Shown piece by piece: positions 1-6,370 of a stretch of 21,001 nt of DNA; position 1 is the stretch's first letter; the number at the start of each line of letters is the position of its first letter. The DNA is from a virus, in the IMG/VR virus record IMGVR_UViG_3300005077_000011, positions 1-21,001 of that record; one strand, 5' to 3'. The position numbers and the translations under genes are program-made. The notes beneath the pieces are model-generated. The model saw only the letters and a list, made by a program, of their open reading frames with translations, was not told the origin of the DNA and searched no databases.

Positions 1-62
1 GGTACTGCCCCCGCTCAGACTGCATTCACAGTGCAGTGCCTCGCTTCTTGGCTTTTTCCACC
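1..62 (-). tRNA. tRNA-His(GUG), 3' end truncated by window edge
   Basis: Anticodon arm CTGCA-CT-GTG-AA-TGCAG; encoded G-1; A8 instead of U8; atypical T-loop GGCAGTA. Confidence 0.85.
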
Positions 63-166
63 AATAATAATGCTTCAATAACTTGGTTAGGCACTATGCA
101 CTTAAATCGTGCTTTCTTAAATGCTGCTAACCATTTTCTTGCTTCTTTCAATGTTATATGAGCCAT
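26..166 (-). CDS. 46-aa hypothetical helical protein overlapping tRNA-Thr and tRNA-His
   Basis: MAHITLKEARKWLAAFKKARFKCIVPNQVIEALLLVEKAKKRGTAL*; fills the unstructured spacer with phage-typical codons. Confidence 0.45.
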   Translation of the reverse strand: MAHITLKEARKWLAAFKKARFKCIVPNQVIEALLLVEKAKKRGTAL

Positions 167-232
167 CGAGAGGAATCGAACCTCTTACATGCTGTTTACA
201 AAACAGCTGTTCTGCCAGTGAACTACGAAGGC
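161..232 (-). tRNA. tRNA-Thr(UGU)
   Basis: GCCTTCG acceptor, GCTGT-TT-TGT-AA-ACAGC, T-loop TTCGATT. Confidence 0.95.
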
Positions 233-236
233 ATGG

Positions 237-372
237 GTTGAGGTAAACCAGTCTTTTATGTTACAAGGCTTGCGCCAGGCACTGCTTGTCTTCCGCTTCC
301 TACTTGCAAATAGGAAATTAGACTACAGACAACTCGAGAAAGTAGGCTTAAAGGGCTTAAAGCCCCCTCAAC
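237..372 (-). ncRNA. Unassigned structured RNA (~136 nt)
   Basis: Closing stem GTTGAGG/CCTCAAC; helices GGGCT/AGCCC, TAAGCC/GGTTTA, TTGTCT/AGACAA, TTCCTA/TAGGAA, GGC-GCAA-GCC. Confidence 0.55.
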
Positions 373-376
373 TTTG

Positions 377-449
377 TGCCGCCCCCAAGAATCGAACTCG
401 GATAATGTGATTTTCAGTCACACGCCTTGACCAGCTCGGCCAGAACGAC
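377..449 (-). tRNA. tRNA-Phe(GAA)
   Basis: TGTGA-CT-GAA-AA-TCACA; CCGAG-TTCGATT-CTTGG. Confidence 0.95.
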
Positions 450-450
450 T

Positions 451-527
451 AAGAGTGAGCATATCGTTACTGATTGAAAAATCGTATAATCAATCGAATT
501 AATTCTGTCAGACTATGACTCACTCTT
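451..527 (-). ncRNA. Unassigned stem-loop RNA (~77 nt)
   Basis: AAGAGTGAG(T)CATA pairs with TATG-CTCACTCTT (13 bp, one bulge); inner hairpin GATTGA/TCAATC. Confidence 0.45.
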
Positions 528-609
528 GTTGTACGAATATTAAATTCGTCTAATTGTTAGCTGACAGCACTATTCCTTAGATGTCGATTATCACCTGTAA
601 ATAGCCTTG

Positions 610-680
610 AGCGGAATACCAGAATTGAACTGGTTACTAATCATTGGCAATGATTCGTTTTGCCGGTAAACCAATCCCGC
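610..680 (-). tRNA. tRNA-Gly(GCC)
   Basis: GCGGGAT acceptor, AATCA-TT-GCC-AA-TGATT, U73. Confidence 0.95.
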
Positions 681-685
681 GGATC

Positions 686-755
686 TCCATGTAACTCCGT
701 ACGAAAGTTAGCACATGGATTAGCTTGCGAATAGAGCTCTTGCGGAACACTATTC
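686..755 (-). ncRNA. Two-hairpin structured spacer RNA
   Basis: GAATAG/CTATTC hairpin capped by GCAA; linker GCAAGCTAA; hairpin TCCATG/CATGGA with TAACT/AGTTA. Confidence 0.4.
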
Positions 756-760
756 CTTTG

Positions 761-832
761 AGGATCATAACAGAATCGAACTGTTGTTTAGTTGTTTTGC
801 AGACAACCGTGTTTCCACTTCACCAACGATCC
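761..832 (-). tRNA. tRNA-Cys(GCA)
   Basis: GTTGT-CT-GCA-AA-ACAAC, U73. Confidence 0.95.
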
Positions 833-889
833 ATGACAGAGATCCCAAAGGGTTCTCCGTAATCTTTTCTACACATGGTAGATAGACTG

Positions 890-961
890 TGGCTAATTAC
901 TGAATTGAACAGTAATCTGTCCCTTATGAGAGGACCGTAATGTCCATTATACCAAGTAGCC
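890..961 (-). tRNA. tRNA-Met(CAU), elongator-like (Ile2 not excluded)
   Basis: GGCTACT acceptor, GTCCT-CT-CAT-AA-GGGAC. Confidence 0.85.
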
Positions 962-970
962 ATTTATTTG

Positions 971-1040
971 TTGCGGCCCACGGAATCGCACCGTGACTTC
1001 AGGATTATGAGCCCTGTGTGCTGCTTTACACTAGACTGCA
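971..1040 (-). tRNA. tRNA-fMet(CAU), initiator-like
   Basis: CAGGG-CT-CAT-AA-TCCTG (GGG run in anticodon stem); 3' strand ...CCGCA-A; T-loop TGCGATT. Confidence 0.8.
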
Positions 1041-1041
1041 A

Positions 1042-1260
1042 TTATTCTTCTGTCAACTCTGAAGTATCTTCAAGAATATCTTCAACATGCTCTTGTTGTT
1101 TATTTACTGTCATCTGAATAAATAGAGACAAATAAATTGCTTCTAAAGATAATAATGTTGTTAATGTTAATAATACTTTTTCAAAGTCAAAAAAGAACAT
1201 GAGCAATATTGCTATTACAAATACTATTGTGTGCACAAACAAAGAGGACTTTGTTCCCAT
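1042..1260 (-). CDS. DUF1003-like small membrane protein (true start probably upstream, ACG at 1305)
   Basis: Two hydrophobic segments and the motif LTTLLSLEAIYLSLFIQMTVNKQ typical of DUF1003; frame open upstream (TKRKRANIIEDLIKW). Confidence 0.7.
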   Translation of the reverse strand: MGTKSSLFVHTIVFVIAILLMFFFDFEKVLLTLTTLLSLEAIYLSLFIQMTVNKQQEHVEDILEDTSELTEE

Positions 1261-1310
1261 CCATTTTATTAGATCTTCAATAATGTTTGCTCTTTTTCTT
1301 TTCGTGTCTG

Positions 1311-1381
1311 CACAGTCATAAAGAATCGAACTTTATCAAAGCGTTTTGGAGACGCTTGTGCAACCAGTACACCTTGACTGT
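1311..1381 (-). tRNA. tRNA-Trp(CCA)
   Basis: AGCGT-CT-CCA-AA-ACGCT, G73, A8. Confidence 0.95.
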
Positions 1382-1387
1382 ATTATG

Positions 1388-1472
1388 TGCTGATCCTAAG
1401 AGTTGAACTTAACGGCCCGGTTAAGGGTTCAGTTTTACAGACTGATTCGCCTCCGTAACGAACTATATCAGC
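1388..1472 (-). tRNA. tRNA-Tyr(GUA), long variable arm (bacterial type)
   Basis: TCAGT-CT-GTA-AA-ACTGA; G1-C72; long V-arm. Confidence 0.9.
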
Positions 1473-1503
1473 ATGAACTCCGTCTTTTGACGAATGTTCA
1501 TTG

Positions 1504-1588
1504 TGCACATGAGAGGAGTTGAACCTCTACGCTTTTTTAGGGCTCATCGTCCTTAGCGATGCGTGTCTGCCAATTTCACCACACGTGC
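1504..1588 (-). tRNA. tRNA-Leu(AAG)
   Basis: CATCG-CT-AAG-GA-CGATG; Leu-type D-loop AAATTGGCAGA; long V-region; A73. Confidence 0.92.
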
Positions 1589-1593
1589 ATTTG

Positions 1594-1666
1594 TCAAGAT
1601 AGAAAGACTCGAACTTTCAGTCTCCTGTTCCCAAAACAGGCGCGATGCCAATTTCGCTATATCCTG
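1594..1666 (-). tRNA. tRNA-Pro(UGG)
   Basis: C1-G72; CCTGT-TT-TGG-GA-ACAGG. Confidence 0.95.
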
Positions 1667-1705
1667 AAGTCAAGACCAGCCTTTATAGATGCTGGTCACA
1701 TCTTG

Positions 1706-1777
1706 CTCTGACGGAGAGATTCGAACTCCCGATATCCTCCTTAACAGGGAGGCGTTCTACCTCTGAACTACATCAGA
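1706..1777 (-). tRNA. tRNA-Asn(GUU)
   Basis: U1-A72, CCTCC-CT-GTT-AA-GGAGG, G73. Confidence 0.95.
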
Positions 1778-1779
1778 AT

Positions 1780-1856
1780 TGGCGAGCTTGACGGGATTCG
1801 AACCCGTGATCTGCTCCGTGACAGGGAGCCGGATTAAGCCACTTTCCCACAAACCC
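1780..1856 (-). tRNA. tRNA-Asp(GUC), only gene with encoded CCA
   Basis: GCTCC-CT-GTC-AC-GGAGC; ends G-CCA. Confidence 0.95.
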
Positions 1857-1862
1857 ATTTTG

Positions 1863-1933
1863 TTCCGCGCCCTAGATTCGAACTACAATTTCCTGCTTCA
1901 GAGGCAGACGTCCTACCGTTGAACGATCGCGGA
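1863..1933 (-). tRNA. tRNA-Gln(CUG)
   Basis: TCTGC-CT-CTG-AA-GCAGG; U1-A72; weak T-stem with a G-G mismatch. Confidence 0.85.
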
Positions 1934-1939
1934 ATCAAG

Positions 1940-2012
1940 TACTCTTACCGGGAGTCGAACCCAGATCCAGTGTTTCGAAGACACTCATTCTAGTCCATTA
2001 AACTATAAGAGC
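1940..2012 (-). tRNA. tRNA-Arg(UCG)
   Basis: AGTGT-CT-TCG-AA-ACACT. Confidence 0.95.
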
Positions 2013-2018
2013 ATTAAG

Positions 2019-2090
2019 TACCCCGTAGAGGAATTGAACCCCTATCCCGTCGTTAGAAGCGATGTATTCTGTCCATTGAACTAACAGGGC
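2019..2090 (-). tRNA. tRNA-Arg(UCU)
   Basis: CATCG-CT-TCT-AA-CGACG. Confidence 0.93.
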
Positions 2091-2095
2091 ATAAG

Positions 2096-2167
2096 TGAAT
2101 CCTGAAGGAGTTGAACCTTCCTAAGCCAGCTTAAAAGGCTGGTGCACTTCCGCTATGCCAAAGATCC
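2096..2167 (-). tRNA. tRNA-Lys(UUU)
   Basis: CCAGC-CT-TTT-AA-GCTGG. Confidence 0.95.
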
Positions 2168-2182
2168 TATCTATATTTGTAT

Positions 2183-2350
2183 CTATATTTTAGCATTATA
2201 TGAGCTCTTTTCTCCACATCTTTCACAGACGGGTATATCTAATTTATATGTAAATGTTCTTCCTGCTCCACTAACAGATCTTGTATAAATCCATTTATGT
2301 TGTCCAAGAATAGATTTTTTACACTTTGTTTCTTTGATTTCTTCTTTCAT
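2183..2350 (-). CDS. 55-aa zinc-binding microprotein (C..H..CxxC, DUF1660-like)
   Basis: MKEEIKETKCKKSILGQHKWIY...PVCERCGEKSSYNAKI*. Confidence 0.7.
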   Translation of the reverse strand: MKEEIKETKCKKSILGQHKWIYTRSVSGAGRTFTYKLDIPVCERCGEKSSYNAKI

Positions 2351-2360
2351 ACACGCATTG

Positions 2361-2432
2361 TGAATCCAGAAAGATTCGGACTTTCAACCGTCCGCTTAAG
2401 AGGCGGATGCTCTACCATTGAGCTATAGATCC
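2361..2432 (-). tRNA. tRNA-Lys(CUU)
   Basis: TCCGC-CT-CTT-AA-GCGGA; T-loop TCCGAAT. Confidence 0.95.
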
Positions 2433-2486
2433 AAAAAAAGGTGGCTTTACACGGTACAAAACATAAAGTAATGACGTGATCCACCT
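2433..2486 (-). other. Bulged stem-loop followed by U-tract (terminator-like or small RNA)
   Basis: AGGTGG/CCACCT and CACG/CGTG followed by a T-run. Confidence 0.35.
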
Positions 2487-2489
2487 AAG

Positions 2490-2563
2490 TGCCTATGAGA
2501 GGACTCGAACCTCTAGAACGCAGTTTCTAAAACTGCTGTCTTTGCCAATTTGACTACAAGGGC
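2490..2563 (-). tRNA. tRNA-Leu(UAG) lacking variable arm
   Basis: GCAGT-TT-TAG-AA-ACTGC; 5-nt V-region GTTCT; Leu-type D-loop; A73. Confidence 0.9.
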
Positions 2564-2567
2564 TATT

Positions 2568-2648
2568 TGAGCTACACCGCTTTTACTAATGGGACTAGAA
2601 AGCTCTTCGAAATGTCCCACAAGAGTCACAACTTTCAGCTCAGGTGAC
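2568..2648 (-). ncRNA. Unassigned pseudoknot-capable RNA (~80 nt)
   Basis: GTCAC/GTGAC, TGAGCT/AGCTCA, GTGGGAC/GTCCCAT, CTCTT/AAGAG. Confidence 0.5.
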
Positions 2649-2656
2649 GGTAAGAG

Positions 2657-2730
2657 TGCCTATAACAGGATTCGAACCTGTACTTGACCGCTTTTAAGAC
2701 GGTTGCCTCTGCCAGTTGGGCTATAAGGGC
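2657..2730 (-). tRNA. tRNA-Leu(UAA) lacking variable arm
   Basis: ACCGT-CT-TAA-AA-GCGGT; 5-nt V-region CAAGT; A73. Confidence 0.9.
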
Positions 2731-2731
2731 T

Positions 2732-2780
2732 TGGAGCCAGTGTTTTTATTTTACTGTGGTCATCCCCGGCGTCCCACATC
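2732..2780 (-). ncRNA. Small H-type pseudoknot candidate ending in CCA
   Basis: TGTGG/CCACA crossed with GCCGG/CTGGC, A-rich linker GTAAAATAAAAACA, 3' end TCCA. Confidence 0.4.
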
Positions 2781-2785
2781 TTGAG

Positions 2786-2864
2786 TGCTCATAGAAGGAT
2801 TCGAACCTTCATGCTTTCACAATAGTTTTTGAAACTATCGCGTATACCATTTCGCCATACGAGC
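2786..2864 (-). tRNA. tRNA-Leu(CAA), miniature variable arm
   Basis: ATAGT-TT-CAA-AA-ACTAT; V-arm GT-GAAA-GC (2 bp). Confidence 0.93.
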
Positions 2865-2869
2865 AATTC

Positions 2870-3069
2870 CAGGATATATAGTTGCGAACATTTCGTACCC
2901 TGAAGGGTTCGGTTAGATTTTGGTTTTCACCAAAACCCTTTGGCTGGTCGTTTTATAGGACTGAGCAATACATTCCTATGGGCCGACCTCTGCAATTGCT
3001 TTGCTCCGCCTTACGGCATTTAACTGATCTTCAGCCTTGATCAGCACCACCACAATTTAAGCCATTGTG
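2870..3069 (-). ncRNA. Unassigned multi-hairpin RNA (~200 nt) with two candidate pseudoknots
   Basis: CACAAT/ATTGTG, CTGATC/GATCAG, GCC-GTAA-GGC, GGTCG/CGACC, ATAGGA/TCCTAT, TTTTGGT-GAAA-ACCAAAA, ACCC-TTCA-GGGT. Confidence 0.6.
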
Positions 3070-3071
3070 AG

Positions 3072-3157
3072 CGGAAGAAGTGAGATTCGAACTCACGAGA
3101 ATCTTTCGACGCTGCCAATTTAGCAAACTGGCTAGGATAACCACTCCAGATTCTTCC
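3072..3157 (-). tRNA. tRNA-Ser(GCU)
   Basis: GGAAGAA acceptor, loop TT-GCT-AA, long V-arm with GAAA, G73. Confidence 0.92.
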
Positions 3158-3161
3158 AATG

Positions 3162-3247
3162 CGGAAGCTGAGGGATTCGAACCCCCAAGAGCTTGCGCCC
3201 GTGCCTGTTTTCAAGACAGGTTCCTTAACCGTTGGGATCAAGCTTCC
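3162..3247 (-). tRNA. tRNA-Ser(UGA)
   Basis: CCTGT-CT-TGA-AA-ACAGG; V-arm GGGC-GCAA-GCTC; G73. Confidence 0.95.
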
Positions 3248-3396
3248 AGATCTTTTCTTTTTTTAAAGTTCATTTTGTCAACAGTATCTCTCATCCAGTT
3301 CAAATGTAGCATCCTGCTCCATTCTCCTACAGATTTCATTGGAGAAAACATTTTTCTCCAGATTCGATGCTTGAATTTTTTCTTTTTAAAATTCAT
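3238..3396 (-). CDS. 52-aa basic microprotein; stop codon lies inside tRNA-Ser(UGA)
   Basis: MNFKKKKFKHRIWRKMFSPMKSVGEWSRMLHLNWMRDTVDKMNFKKRKDLEA*. Confidence 0.55.
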   Translation of the reverse strand: MNFKKKKFKHRIWRKMFSPMKSVGEWSRMLHLNWMRDTVDKMNFKKRKDLEA

Positions 3397-3399
3397 ATC

Positions 3400-3470
3400 T
3401 GTTAGTCTCTAAACCTTATCTGACGGTTGAAGTAAGTATCAGTTTAGAGCAACCGTAAATTATACTAACA
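3400..3470 (-). ncRNA. Nested pseudoknot directly upstream of the micro-ORF at 3396
   Basis: TGTTAGT/ACTAACA encloses crossing helices ACGGTTG/CAACCGT and CTCTAAAC/GTTTAGAG, all perfect Watson-Crick. Confidence 0.6.
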
Positions 3471-3473
3471 TTG

Positions 3474-3545
3474 TAGTCCCTAAGAGACTTGAACTCCCAA
3501 CCTTCTCTGTGTAAAAGAGTCGCTCTGCCATTGAGCTAAAGGACT
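3474..3545 (-). tRNA. tRNA-Val(UAC)
   Basis: CTCT-TT-TAC-AC-AGAG; A73. Confidence 0.93.
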
Positions 3546-3546
3546 G

Positions 3547-3617
3547 AGCATTCAAGGGGACTCGAACCCCTGACCGCTGCTTGGAAGGCAGCCGCGTTAC
3601 CACTACGCCATGAACGC
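3547..3617 (-). tRNA. tRNA-Gly(UCC)
   Basis: GCTGC-CT-TCC-AA-GCAGC; U73; 1-nt spacer to tRNA-Val. Confidence 0.95.
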
Positions 3618-3619
3618 AA

Positions 3620-3942
3620 TTAAAAAACTAACTATGGGAAAGAAGGCAATAAAAAATCCGTTTTTCCAATCAGCGGTTGTTCCAGGTTTCCCCAGTTCAA
3701 CATAAAAGGTCTAACAAGCTCCTTTACTGAACTTGCCACTCATTGAATCCTCTGCAGTAAAAATTTACATATGCCTGTAAGGTGATTGTTAAAATCTACT
3801 GGATTCGAGACCATTATCACTCTTGCGAGATCTAGGCTTACCTTTGATTATTTCGAAAGTCTAGATACTAATCACTTAGCTTCAAATGTGCACTAGCCCT
3901 GCGTAGCAGCTTATTATGCGATTCCCAAAGTTAATTTTTTAA
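3620..3942 (-). ncRNA. Large unassigned structured RNA (~320 nt)
   Basis: 21-nt imperfect terminal inverted repeat, many internal helices and GNRA loops, no long ORF, promoter immediately upstream. Confidence 0.65.
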
Positions 3943-3954
3943 TGTTCAAATACT

Positions 3955-3983
3955 ATTATATACCAACTTTTAAAATTTGTAAA
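3955..3983 (-). promoter_or_regulatory. sigma70-like promoter inside the tRNA array
   Basis: TTTACA-17 nt-TATAAT. Confidence 0.75.
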
Positions 3984-3994
3984 TATTCAATTTG

Positions 3995-4065
3995 TACCCC
4001 TACAGAGATTCGAACTCTGGCTACTACCTTGAGGGGGTAGTGTCCTGCCTCTAGACAACAGGGGC
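3995..4065 (-). tRNA. tRNA-Glu(CUC)
   Basis: CTACC-CC-CTC-AA-GGTAG (C33). Confidence 0.9.
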
Positions 4066-4073
4066 ATCAACTG

Positions 4074-4145
4074 TGGACCATAAGAGAATCGAACTCTTAC
4101 CTAAACTTTGCAAAAGTTTCGTTCTGCCATTAGCACTAATAGCCC
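4074..4145 (-). tRNA. tRNA-Ala(UGC)
   Basis: AAACT-TT-TGC-AA-AGTTT; G3-U70 identity pair. Confidence 0.95.
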
Positions 4146-4146
4146 T

Positions 4147-4212
4147 TTACTTCTTTTTGTTTTTCTTTGGTTTCTTTTTCTCGCGATTGCCGCGACGTTC
4201 TTTGTCTGCCAT
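4147..4212 (-). CDS. 21-aa Lys/Arg-rich microprotein
   Basis: MADKERRGNREKKKPKKNKKK*; fills the spacer between two tRNAs almost exactly. Confidence 0.65.
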   Translation of the reverse strand: MADKERRGNREKKKPKKNKKK

Positions 4213-4215
4213 ACG

Positions 4216-4289
4216 TAGCGTGTGCCGGATTCGGACCGGCGATCTTTTCCTTGAAAGGGAAACGAGTTGGGCCACTCCTCCAACACGCC
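4216..4289 (-). tRNA. tRNA-Glu(UUC)
   Basis: TTTCC-CT-TTC-AA-GGAAA; T-loop TCCGAAT. Confidence 0.93.
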
Positions 4290-4294
4290 TTAAG

Positions 4295-4365
4295 TTCCAC
4301 TGCTAGGAATCGAACCCAGATTAAGTGGTTCAAAGCCACCTGGCCTACCTTTAGCCGACTGTGGA
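4295..4365 (-). tRNA. tRNA-Gln(UUG)
   Basis: GGTGG-CT-TTG-AA-CCACT; U1-A72. Confidence 0.93.
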
Positions 4366-4370
4366 ATCAG

Positions 4371-4499
4371 TTATTTTTCTATAGGTTCTTTTGTAACAAA
4401 CTTACAATTTAAACACTTCCAGTTTGTTTTTGTACTTGTATCCTGTTTAATTAAATTTGTTGAGTCACATTTTGGACAATGTTTTGTTGTATCTGCCAT
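4371..4499 (-). CDS. 42-aa zinc-ribbon microprotein
   Basis: MADTTKHCPKCDSTNLIKQDTSTKTNWKCLNCKFVTKEPIEK*; two CxxC motifs. Confidence 0.75.
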   Translation of the reverse strand: MADTTKHCPKCDSTNLIKQDTSTKTNWKCLNCKFVTKEPIEK

Positions 4500-4502
4500 A
4501 AG

Positions 4503-4574
4503 TTGGTAAGACAGGATTTGAACCTGTGGCCTCTTCAATGTCAATGAAGCGTTCTTCCTCTGAACTACTCACCA
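4503..4574 (-). tRNA. tRNA-Val(GAC), first gene of the array
   Basis: CTTCA-TT-GAC-AT-TGAAG; TGGTGAG/CTTACCA acceptor. Confidence 0.93.
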
Positions 4575-4606
4575 GTTAGAGTATACTGTTATGTATACTC
4601 TATTAT

Positions 4607-4635
4607 ATTATATATTAACGAACCTTCTCTGCAAA
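4607..4635 (-). promoter_or_regulatory. Probable promoter of the tRNA array
   Basis: TTTGCA-17-TATAAT followed by a leader hairpin AGAGTATAC/GTATACTCT (about 4578-4601). Confidence 0.6.
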
Positions 4636-4992
4636 GTTCTCAGCCATTTTCTGATAACCTTGGGCCATTTTTAAGCTATACACTATTTCTCGTCGTACAA
4701 GAGCATAATATAATTCTGTTCCTAGTCGAGCAATCACATATTTGCCATTTACATTTCCAAACAATTCTTGATGAACATAAATATTACGTCCAAGAAATTG
4801 TTTCTTTATACTTCTAACAGTACTTCTAGTTTTAGAAGCTTCTACTTCAAGACTATAATCAAGATTTAATATTTCGGCAACTTCATGAATATCAAGTCCG
4901 TTACCTACATTTTGATATCTGCAGGCAGAACGAATTGCTGTTACTACGCGCTGTTGCATTGGATCTGCAACACAAATATTGGCTCTTCTCAT
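4615..4992 (-). CDS. Hypothetical protein, possible winged-HTH DNA-binding
   Basis: SD AGGAGG; LDIHEVAEIL...VRSIKK helix pattern followed by a beta hairpin (NGKYVI). Confidence 0.6.
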   Translation of the reverse strand: MRRANICVADPMQQRVVTAIRSACRYQNVGNGLDIHEVAEILNLDYSLEVEASKTRSTVRSIKKQFLGRNIYVHQELFGNVNGKYVIARLGTELYYALVRREIVYSLKMAQGYQKMAENFAEKVR

Positions 4993-5029
4993 ATATTCCT
5001 CCTATTGAGAAAAAATTTATACTGAGAAA

Positions 5030-5058
5030 ATTGTATCAGGAAAAAAGAAGATTGTAAA
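5030..5058 (-). promoter_or_regulatory. sigma70-like promoter with extended -10
   Basis: TTTACA-17-TACAAT with TGn. Confidence 0.7.
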
Positions 5059-5076
5059 TAGACAAAATATTATAGG

Positions 5077-5295
5077 TTATATGAGTTTATTCTCGATTTC
5101 AAGATAATAAGCTTTAAGAACAGCTTTTTCGAAGGTTTCTGCTTTATATCTACGACCAGTATTTATTTTAGGATTACCATACTTATCTATATCATAGACA
5201 TCTATAGAAGAAGAGCTCACAGGAGAAAATACACAATAAATGTGAAATTTACTTACTAACTTTCCTAGCTTGTCAGCATAAGAAGAATCATTCAT
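5077..5295 (-). CDS. Hypothetical protein (leaderless mRNA candidate)
   Basis: 72-aa ORF; ATG 7 nt after a TATAAT. Confidence 0.7.
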   Translation of the reverse strand: MNDSSYADKLGKLVSKFHIYCVFSPVSSSSIDVYDIDKYGNPKINTGRRYKAETFEKAVLKAYYLEIENKLI

Positions 5296-5302
5296 TATTG
5301 CT

Positions 5303-5331
5303 ATTATAAACTATTAAATGAAAAAAGTAAA
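5303..5331 (-). promoter_or_regulatory. sigma70-like promoter
   Basis: TTTACT-17-TATAAT. Confidence 0.7.
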
Positions 5332-5332
5332 A

Positions 5333-5557
5333 CTAGACTAGTTTTTGAAGTTCTAATTGAGACGGTATATTTTTTATGCCAACTTGTTTAGCCTCTCCTA
5401 CAATATTAGAATAATCTACATTTCGATTGTCGTGTTTATAAAAAGTTTGATCAGATTTTTTAAGATCTTTAAAATGATAAAAAAATGTACTAAAGGCGTC
5501 TTTAGTTAATTTAGTCTCAACAACAGTATTTTTTAAGGGCTCTGTGAATTTCTTCAT
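5333..5557 (-). CDS. Hypothetical protein
   Basis: 74-aa ORF; extended -10 TGTTATAAT 9 nt upstream, no SD. Confidence 0.65.
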   Translation of the reverse strand: MKKFTEPLKNTVVETKLTKDAFSTFFYHFKDLKKSDQTFYKHDNRNVDYSNIVGEAKQVGIKNIPSQLELQKLV

Positions 5558-5604
5558 AGTACTACTATTATAACATATTACAATAGAGTATAGAAGGAGC
5601 AGTT

Positions 5605-5952
5605 ATGACAACACATCAACAGTTTGAGAAAGACTTTGAAGAGTTTATATCTTCAATGCAAAATATCCTCGTAAAAAAGAACCATGATTATACAGGAGAA
5701 AATCAAGATCCACTTTTTAACTTTAGAAGAGCTGAAAACATGGGCATTCCTGCTTGGAAGGGAGCAATGATTCGTTTTTCAGACAAGGTGTCTCGCCTAG
5801 AGACTTTTGCTAAAAAGGGAGAACTCAAAGTTGAAGATGAAAACTTTTTAGATACATTACGTGATGCAGCAAACTATTTATTCTTAATAGGAGAGCTGTA
5901 TAAGGAGTCAAAATATGGGAAAAATAGTAAAAGCCTTGAGAGTAGCAGTTGA
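5605..5952 (+). CDS. Nucleotide-modification-associated domain 1 (DUF1599/Nmad1)-like protein
   Basis: KKNHDY...DPLFNF...IRFSDKVSRL...ENFLDTLRDAANY; SD AAGGAG. Confidence 0.8.
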   Translation: MTTHQQFEKDFEEFISSMQNILVKKNHDYTGENQDPLFNFRRAENMGIPAWKGAMIRFSDKVSRLETFAKKGELKVEDENFLDTLRDAANYLFLIGELYKESKYGKNSKSLESSS

Positions 5953-6370
5953 TCTTCAATCTCTTATTGATAAAAAGCTTACAAAAGATACAAAAAATTT
6001 ATTACATTTTGGAGCATGGAAAGGTGCATTAGGAACAGTTTCTGTTTTATCAGAAGTTTTTGACTTATATCTTATTGTTCCAAATGAACATTTAAATGAA
6101 GAAGAAGTATTACGCTGGCTAAAGGCAGCTCAAATTAATGCTTCTTTTAGAAAGTTTTTTATTAATGATGAAAAGATACGAGATACAATATTAATGTCGA
6201 GTATTAATGTTACAATAACATCAGCAACAGATTTAGCAAACACTTTAAAAGATGTCTCTAAAGTTTATTTGCTTCAAAAGAAACACGACAATAATATTTG
6301 TGATGGAATACTAAAAGTTTCTCAATGGAGAGAAATCATAAAAGATATTTCATTCTTTTCAACAGAATAA
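5915..6370 (+). CDS. Degenerate HAD-fold 5'(3')-nucleotidase-like protein
   Basis: RVAVDLQSLI (DxD reduced to DxQ), C-terminal KVSQWREI. Confidence 0.5.
   Translation: MGKIVKALRVAVDLQSLIDKKLTKDTKNLLHFGAWKGALGTVSVLSEVFDLYLIVPNEHLNEEEVLRWLKAAQINASFRKFFINDEKIRDTILMSSINVTITSATDLANTLKDVSKVYLLQKKHDNNICDGILKVSQWREIIKDISFFSTE

Follow-up and report, generated by a model that had tools for sequence, protein, structure and literature searches.

Small genes placed flush behind tRNA 3' ends in a phage tRNA array, and the possibility that tRNA excision prepares their messages

We analysed the first 21,001 nucleotides (nt), hereafter the window, of the phage record IMGVR_UViG_3300005077_000011 (IMG/VR; linear, 89,947 bp, 96% complete), which carry a one-strand array of 29 transfer RNA (tRNA) genes with small open reading frames (ORFs) and folded elements in its longer spacers. 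By its architecture the array is a T5-type phage tRNA operon. The comparisons reported here indicate that its spacer ORFs are real, conserved genes, of which orf21 is the least certain, and that starts set directly behind tRNA 3' ends recur in the arrays of related phages. Excision of the tRNAs could create ready-to-translate leaderless messages from such junctions, in a manner resembling mitochondria; we consider the chances of this proposal to be evenly balanced.

The five spacer ORFs (Table 1) have no Shine-Dalgarno (SD) core upstream. A preliminary description of this stretch had placed the ATGs at 4499 and 4212 three nt, and the ATG at 2350 ten nt, after a tRNA discriminator base without an SD, and both the positions and the absence of the SD were confirmed. 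The spacer-filling ORFs exceed chance: in mononucleotide shuffles their geometry had probabilities of 0.0012 (orf42), 0.020 (orf21), 0.0006 (orf55), 0.0003 (orf72) and 0.006 (orf52). Homologues of the four that were searched for (orf42, orf52, orf55 and orf72) were found elsewhere, mostly at the same place in the tRNA arrays of other phages. The ORF-bearing spacers are also a class apart from the structured non-coding spacers described below. Their GC fraction is 0.31 (range 0.27-0.39, coding-like), that of the non-coding spacers 0.40 and that of the tRNAs 0.49, and no structure emerged in the two ORF spacers that were folded in full (z -0.8 and +0.5).

Starts of this kind are not confined to the window. 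The genome of this phage (G000) was compared with the relatives or loci G001, L020, L022, L024, L061 and L063. In G000, G001, L020, L022 and L024 an ATG ORF of at least 40 codons begins within 0-8 nt after 16 of 139 tRNAs, where 5.4 were expected from random positions (P 1e-4). Two of these 16 are spurious frames that run through a tRNA; the others include a 363-aa (amino acid) protein, a Fic protein, two MazG proteins, an HNH-like protein and several zinc ribbons, none of them with an SD. In a sixth array, L063, the flush genes encode SSB, HisRS-like and DUF1003 proteins. The pattern is absent from the distant arrays L026-L056. Comparison of individual junctions indicates that they are conserved though the linker varies: the zinc-ribbon ORF follows tRNA-Val in three lineages, 2 nt after C74 (the nucleotide behind the discriminator) in the window, about 1 nt in the contig of protein P0023 and 0 nt in L061, while orf55 follows tRNA-Lys(CUU) after 9 nt in the window (1 nt if counted to a mini-ORF) and after 0 nt in L024.

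Table 1. Positions of the features discussed in the text, in window coordinates
Feature	Position	Strand	Evidence and remarks
orf42, 42 aa, CxxC...CxxC zinc ribbon	4371..4499	minus	ATG 2 nt after C74 of tRNA-Val(GAC); stop 5 nt before tRNA-Gln
orf21, 21 aa, lysine-rich	4147..4212	minus	ATG 2 nt after C74 of tRNA-Glu(UUC); stop 1 nt before tRNA-Ala
orf52, 52 aa, basic	3238..3396	minus	76 nt after C74 of tRNA-Val(UAC); TGA is nucleotides 8-10 of tRNA-Ser(UGA)
orf55, 55 aa, C...H...CxxC	2183..2350	minus	ATG 9 nt after C74 of tRNA-Lys(CUU); 15 nt downstream flank
orf72, DUF1003-like small membrane protein	1042..1260	minus	ATG 49 nt after C74 of tRNA-Trp; stop 1 nt before tRNA-Met
Mini-ORF of three codons	2347..2358	minus	1 nt after C74 of tRNA-Lys(CUU); TGA overlaps orf55 ATG (ATGA); sequence reading
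tRNA array, 29 genes	160..4574	minus	ARAGORN, Rfam, 3'-end listing, CCA tally
Possible 30th tRNA, His-like, cut by contig start	1..61	minus	GUG anticodon stem-loop, atypical T arm; sequence reading; aligned to tRNA-His of four relatives
Array promoter, TTTGCA-17-TATAAT	4607..4635	minus	Promoter scan, 10/12 matches; promoter block kept in L061
Internal promoter, TTTACA-17-TATAAT	3955..3983	minus	Best promoter match of the region, 11/12
10-bp hairpin where the primary transcript is predicted to begin	4577..4600	minus	2-3 nt before tRNA-Val; z -4.8
Structured RNA of about 330 nt in a 376-nt spacer	3618..3948	minus	Inverted repeat, fold, own promoter; 22-nt closing stem (3619-3640 with 3922-3943)
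Non-coding spacer of 206 nt, several hairpins	2865..3070	minus	z -2.6 and -3.2; GC 0.44; no homologue found
Near-perfect 12-bp hairpin filling the tRNA-Leu(AAG)/tRNA-Tyr spacer	1473..1502	minus	z -6.4
Stem closed by GGUGG/CCACC, then seven U, just before tRNA-Lys(CUU)	2433..2488	minus	z -3.6
Three structured spacers (450-608, 681-759, 833-888), split by tRNA-Gly and tRNA-Cys	450..888	minus	z -2.3, -2.1, -2.7
72-aa gene, 5077-5295	5077..5331	minus	ATG 7 nt after TATAAT of TTTACT-17-TATAAT promoter; promoter-type leaderless; G001 ortholog
74-aa gene, 5333-5557	5333..5572	minus	ATG 9 nt after TGnTATAAT extended -10 box; near-leaderless

The first of the small genes, orf42, gave weak zinc-ribbon matches in Pfam and PHROGs. 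It is itself absent from the protein database, which holds a single homologue, P0023, 64% identical. P0023 had been called as 69 aa, of which the first 25 residues are tRNA-Val read in frame; its real start lies about one base after the tRNA end, and two upstream genes match the synteny of the window. Close relatives of the window were met as fragments, namely this P0023 contig (run SRR23086394) and L061 (GCA_040961015.1). In L061 the orf42 homologue is preceded by the same promoter, a hairpin and a tRNA-like element, and its ATG stands directly after C74. Over the conserved ORF stretch, three of the five DNA differences between L061 and orf42 are synonymous. The first CxxC is kept in both homologues and the second in P0023, the L061 contig ending before it. 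The tRNA-like element of L061 (658-722 of a 780-bp contig) occupies the tRNA-Val position and scores 38 bits on the tRNA model; its acceptor, D and T arms are retained, its anticodon loop has 3 nt, so that decoding is impossible, and the zinc-ribbon ORF begins directly after its C74. It may act as a processing signal only, or may be an assembly error.

For orf55, an exhaustive search returned P0027 (E 1e-7), P0031 and P0033. H18, C42 and C45 are invariant in this family, and the first Cys is present in three of its four members. P0027, from L024, begins directly after C74 of the same tRNA, tRNA-Lys(CUU). The predicted model of orf55 is a beta-hairpin with a predicted local distance difference test (pLDDT) score of 70. 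Zinc-ribbon knuckles are conserved among the homologues of both orf42 and orf55, with all Pfam matches below the cut-offs. The mini-ORF ahead of orf55 could couple its own translation to that of orf55 by the stop-start overlap; a second three-codon mini-ORF lies at 3461-3472 (minus strand), 1 nt after C74 of tRNA-Val(UAC). The counterpart of orf52 in G001 is found directly upstream of tRNA-Ser(GCU).

The orf72 product matched Pfam DUF1003 over profile positions 1-66 of 103 (E 2e-4), and with 21.8 bits it stays below the gathering cut-off of 27.4, so it is best called DUF1003-like. It has 21 homologues (E down to 3e-16), several with precomputed PF06210 matches, and in four other phage contigs a homologue sits in a large tRNA array. 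A DUF1003-like gene stands directly before tRNA-Met(CAU) in L020, L024, L063 and the window, and same-strand tRNAs lie within 4 kb in 14 of the 35 IMG/VR loci that carry such a gene. Both small-protein families, DUF1003-like and orf55, are present in L024. Gene-plus-tRNA modules are thus conserved although the arrays are otherwise shuffled. On the minus strand at 1261-1311, the orf72 frame remains open upstream of the ATG at 1260, as far as the base that follows C74 of tRNA-Trp. The translation of 1261-1308 resembles the lysine-rich N-terminus of the DUF1003-like family, and the stretch offers none of the start codons ATG, GTG and TTG. The family ATG of L063 lies 2 nt after tRNA-Asn. It seems that orf72 has lost a tRNA-flush start codon or uses an unusual one. 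Lysine-rich peptides of 21, 24 and 46 aa begin 0-2 nt after tRNAs in the window, in L020 (after tRNA-Gln(UUG)) and in L063 (after tRNA-Met). They bring to mind Tpr, a protamine-like peptide whose coding sequence follows tyrT in E. coli.

The tRNA genes behind which these ORFs lie were called by ARAGORN, and all 29 are on the minus strand. Rfam supports 28 of them, 27 by the tRNA model and Ser(GCU) as a tRNA-clan match, whereas tRNA-Tyr was called by ARAGORN only. Thirty had originally been counted; the thirtieth is probably the His-like element at 61-1, a putative tRNA truncated by the contig start. Because the contig begins within this element, the array probably extends past the record. Joining both contig ends completed no tRNA at the His-like stretch and yielded no terminal repeat and no tmRNA (ARAGORN). 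Missing from the array are tRNA-Ile(GAU) and a complete tRNA-His. Its spacers are bimodal, 12 measuring 0-8 nt and 16 measuring 30-376 nt, with none in between.

In 27 of the 29 tRNA genes the discriminator is followed by C74 alone and not by CCA; only Asp encodes CCA. The same holds for 137 of 164 genes (84%) in six related arrays (window, G001, L020, L022, L024 and L063), where C74 is followed by A or T, so that neither CCA nor a random base is encoded. With only C74 in the gene and CCA not encoded, endonucleolytic 3' processing and CCA addition are required. Precursors that lack CCA are cleaved in B. subtilis by RNase Z, on the 3' side of the discriminator, and there C74 forms a pair with the RNA of RNase P (PMC1874595). 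In S. coelicolor, tRNAs whose genes encode CCA are cut behind C74, the first of the two Cs (PMC4681348). C74-only tRNA genes mark the predicted processing boundary.

These elements can be assembled into the following scheme, which we infer from the sequence. Two sigma-70-like promoters (4635-4607 and 3983-3955) would drive long minus-strand transcripts carrying, besides 29 or more tRNAs, several folded RNAs and the five genes for small proteins. Each tRNA would be cut at its 5' end by the RNase P of the host and at or next to C74 by a 3' endonuclease (RNase Z or a similar enzyme), and the CCA-adding enzyme would then complete the end. Whether the cut fell after the discriminator or after C74, the downstream fragment would begin 0-3 nt before the ATG of orf42 or orf21. 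Since orf42, orf21 and the mini-ORF lie 1-2 nt after C74 and lack both an SD and their own promoter, cutting the preceding tRNA at its 3' end would produce a message with its AUG at the new 5' end or no more than 2-3 nt from it. By inspection, the upstream tRNAs of orf42, orf21 and orf55 contain no promoter, the sequence upstream of each ATG being the 3' half of the tRNA. The same cuts would free the folded spacers as discrete small RNAs.

This scheme presupposes a host able to translate leaderless mRNAs, and the phage evidently has one, to judge by its promoters. When the long ORFs of G000 are sorted by how far their first ATG lies from a TAnAAT box, there is a sharp maximum at 6 nt, a bin with 6 genes where about 0.75 would be expected. 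The range of 6-10 nt takes in twelve G000 genes, most with a TTTAC(A/T) -35 box, and several such genes occur in G001. A TATAAT at exactly 6 nt from the ATG, together with a properly placed -35 box, precedes at least six genes, for example those at 47572, 80036, 81495, 79948 and 79473. Promoter-made leaderless mRNAs seem to occur regularly in this phage. The two genes next to the array that start at 5295 and 5557 had been described as leaderless in appearance, which agrees with a TATAAT 7 nt and 9 nt before their respective ATGs; the G001 ortholog of the second has 13 nt between box and ATG and a weak GAAGGA, so that this arrangement is not fixed. Strong SDs are also used, as in AGGAGG before 4992, and a crude first-ATG test found an SD core in 43% of long ORFs versus 9% of random positions. 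A host that translates promoter-made leaderless mRNAs would also be expected to translate cleavage-made, monophosphate-ended ones. Promoter-made leaderless bacterial mRNAs, which are common in Actinobacteria (PMC4633059), share with the array ORFs an AUG at or near the 5' end and the lack of an SD, and at least 6-12 genes of this phage, with TATAAT 6-10 nt before the ATG, are of that type. They differ in the origin of the 5' end, which for the array ORFs would be a monophosphate left by cleavage. An actinobacterial host was considered and tested by way of WhiB, for which neither G000 nor G001 gave a match.

The punctuation proposal of the preliminary description agrees with the real flush ORFs, the conserved junctions and the C74-only tRNAs, but it meets a number of difficulties. 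The most serious comes from stop codons. The orf52 stop lies inside tRNA-Ser, and eight or more ORFs of relatives (L020, L024, G001) run 10-15 nt into the following tRNA, as a rule to a U8-R9-R10 that is read as a stop. RNase P would remove such stops, so these ORFs must be read before the downstream tRNA is excised, and translation and processing must at least compete. The linkers are variable (0 to 9 nt), and model bacteria initiate leaderless messages best with the AUG at the very 5' end. Flushness is not obligatory either, as the G001 copy of orf52 has an AAGGAG SD and the DUF1003 gene of L020 has GAGG. The first ATG of orf72, far from tRNA-Trp, is a poor fit, and close tRNA flanks on both sides are lacking for orf72 (49-nt leader) as well as for orf52 (76-nt leader, stop in a tRNA). 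Furthermore, by the same first-ATG test, 57% of the long ORFs in the genome have no SD core. The last difficulty concerns the folded spacers: apart from the RNA of about 330 nt, no structured spacer has a counterpart detectable by blastn or pattern scans in G001 or elsewhere.

Several of these points would be expected if the operon and its genes were the same, but initiation took place independently of an SD at A/U-rich starts on the unprocessed or partly processed precursor, flushness being a result of compaction. The strongest argument for such translation of the precursor is that ORFs stopping inside the next tRNA need that tRNA to be attached. The low GC of all five ORF spacers, the lack of structure in the two that were folded, the absence of an SD core from over half of the long ORFs (in the crude test) and the unfixed linker length are also in line with it. 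However, a start 2-3 nt from a stable acceptor stem would probably make a poor 30S binding site, and leaderless starts that depend on the 5' end are clearly in use at the promoters of the phage. In addition, T5, whose host is SD-dependent, retains leaders of 16-34 nt with an SD after its tRNAs, so compaction alone does not force flush starts. We regard translation of the precursor, the main alternative, as unlikely, though with a real chance of being correct.

A second alternative concerns the spacers as a whole, and in particular those without ORFs. Essentially every longer spacer had been said to contain either an ORF or a folded element. The five ORFs bear this out in part, and folding is better supported for the non-coding spacers as a set than for each of them. 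With z-scores from 200 shuffles, the 11 non-coding spacers range individually from -0.5 to -6.4, and three of them (233-375, 2564-2655 and 2731-2784) are individually unconvincing, with z above -1.5. In separate folding runs, 10 non-coding spacers gave a mean z of -2.65 in the sense and -1.76 in the antisense direction, coding controls giving -0.55. The most elaborate element is the RNA of about 330 nt. Its core (3700-3927) is homologous to G001 5045-5249, where it lies right after tRNA-Trp, and 14 of 37 predicted pairs are compensatory in this two-sequence alignment, which is suggestive, and not proof, of a conserved structured RNA. A two-block pattern of this RNA matched only G001, and a two-sequence nhmmer profile gave no further copy in the compared loci. 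Blastn aligned none of the spacers to G001, and exact-pattern scans for the two long spacer RNAs found no match. Under permissive Rfam settings no spacer matched a non-tRNA family, including RNase P RNA, tmRNA, 6S, GOLLD and ROOL. Hidden or degenerate tRNAs were considered as well and rejected: the spacers gave no match to the tRNA model at E up to 1, and no T-arm motif was seen by eye. Conservation in related phages, by which the proposal was to be judged, was found for four ORFs and the RNA of about 330 nt, and not for most structured spacers.

The spacers might accordingly be decaying or silent leftovers of genes, tRNAs or homing-endonuclease fragments, with the folds serving as insulators, RNase III or pause sites, or terminators that aid tRNA folding. 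That orf72 lost the start codon at the family N-terminus while its frame was kept would fit such decay, as would the short, low-complexity orf21, borderline in the shuffles, and the many structured spacers that are simple hairpins without a homologue. The tRNA-Val copy of L061 with its 3-nt anticodon loop implies that decay does occur in arrays of this type. On the other hand, four ORFs are conserved as proteins in several phages with conservative or synonymous changes, the RNA of about 330 nt has a strong promoter of its own along with the compensatory pairs, and comparable spacers of T5 are annotated as stable RNAs. We consider the leftover explanation improbable. That the flush ATG ORFs are chance frames, as could arise where an A-2 U-1 leader meets G+1 of the next tRNA to complete an ATG, where many ATGs lie past tRNA ends and where two flush hits do read through tRNAs, is very improbable and is already contradicted for orf42, orf55, orf52 and orf72 by the shuffles (0.0003-0.006), the homologues and the cross-array excess, leaving only orf21 to such an origin.

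A wider form of the punctuation proposal can be put forward tentatively, namely that this phage lineage uses host tRNA nucleases to make translatable 5' ends within tRNA operons and keeps nondecoding tRNA-like elements as punctuation. A cut at C74 would then expose an AUG 0-5 nt from the new 5' end for dozens of genes, among them the MazG, Fic, SSB, DUF1003-like and zinc-ribbon genes, and the L061 element would be a punctuation mark. If tRNA excision does operate in this way, bacterial translation can be licensed by 5' ends that come from RNA processing and not from a promoter. It would also account for small genes that gene callers overlook, or give a wrong start, in the tRNA arrays of phages, as with the uncalled orf42 and with P0023 called through a tRNA, and it would tie the zinc ribbons, the DUF1003-like protein and the lysine-rich peptides to the timing and amount of phage tRNA synthesis. 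The modules tRNA-Val plus zinc ribbon, tRNA-Lys(CUU) plus orf55 and DUF1003 plus tRNA-Met are candidates for a role in tRNA biology or host takeover. A full-text literature search, with most subscription journals outside its coverage, returned no paper on tRNA-flush or tRNA-punctuated phage genes.

Some further observations concern the start of the array and the phage itself. The hairpin at 4577-4600 has a positional counterpart in L061 that differs in sequence and carries a GAAA loop. An 8-nt box, TATACTCT (minus strand, 5592-5585), reappears as both arms of the palindrome at 4577-4600, just downstream of the array promoter. A regulator, perhaps the 125-aa protein encoded at 4615-4992, may use both sites as an operator. 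The only genome-level relative in IMG/VR is G001 (94 kb, direct terminal repeats, 31-32 tRNAs), with core genes about 67% identical to those of the window phage. The two genomes are syntenic over most of their length; their main tRNA arrays have opposite orientations, the tRNA order is largely shuffled, and the distance from the array to the portal gene is 1.8 kb in G000 and about 18 kb in G001. Extra small tRNA clusters are present in G001 at 4-6.6 kb and 12.2-12.5 kb. Megablast of window positions 1-6000 against 50,697 phage records gave no match at the DNA level and no close cultured relative, the records nearest to the portal protein share only about 25% identity with it, and a metagenome scan for relatives returned a 2.4-kb fragment only.

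Among known systems, T5 is the closest in architecture. Its tRNA region (NC_005859, about 28.0-41.6 kb, by annotation) is one-stranded and comprises 25 tRNAs, coding sequences of 27-60 aa, some with transmembrane segments, internal promoters and eight RNAs annotated as "stable RNA with unknown functions". The window shares with it the one-strand array and the small coding sequences between many same-strand tRNAs (five ORFs among 29), and in T5, too, some coding sequences have stops that overlap the next tRNA. The two differ at the junctions. The embedded coding sequences of T5 begin 16-34 nt after a tRNA, with an SD core in 13 of 17, and 21 of 23 of its tRNA genes encode CCA; in the window, three starts lie 2-9 nt after C74, none of the five ORFs has the SD-bearing leader of about 20 nt of the T5 type, and the tRNA genes, Asp excepted, lack an encoded CCA. 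As candidates for stable RNAs like those of T5, the window has one element with a promoter and covariation against G001, and others supported by fold z-scores only. No sequence homology to T5 was found, and the T5 portal is absent among the matches listed. The T4 tRNA cluster, with 8 tRNAs, the stable RNAs C and D, and CCA-less tRNAs that need RNase BN/Z and nucleotidyltransferase, resembles the window in having extra stable small RNAs in tRNA precursors, no encoded CCA, and dependence on a host 3' endonuclease and CCA addition. We know of no T4 genes that start flush against tRNA 3' ends.

By analogy, the proposed mechanism would combine the tRNA punctuation of mitochondria, reportedly put forward by Ojala, Montoya and Attardi in 1981, with bacterial leaderless translation. 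Here the setting is a phage in a bacterium and the case is known from sequence; the array is only partly punctuated, some ORFs overlap the next tRNA and, unlike in mitochondria, we know of no polyadenylation that could complete stop codons. The features that would be shared with the punctuation model, as described in PMC8601606, are a polycistronic transcript and short, leaderless, tRNA-flanked mRNAs almost without untranslated regions, whose ends would be defined by RNase P and RNase Z cuts. Within the window, tRNAs flank orf42 (2 nt upstream and 5 nt downstream), orf21 (2 and 1 nt) and orf55 (9 and 15 nt) on both sides at such distances. If tRNA excision does prepare these messages for translation, the array would be a viral or bacterial counterpart of mitochondrial tRNA punctuation.

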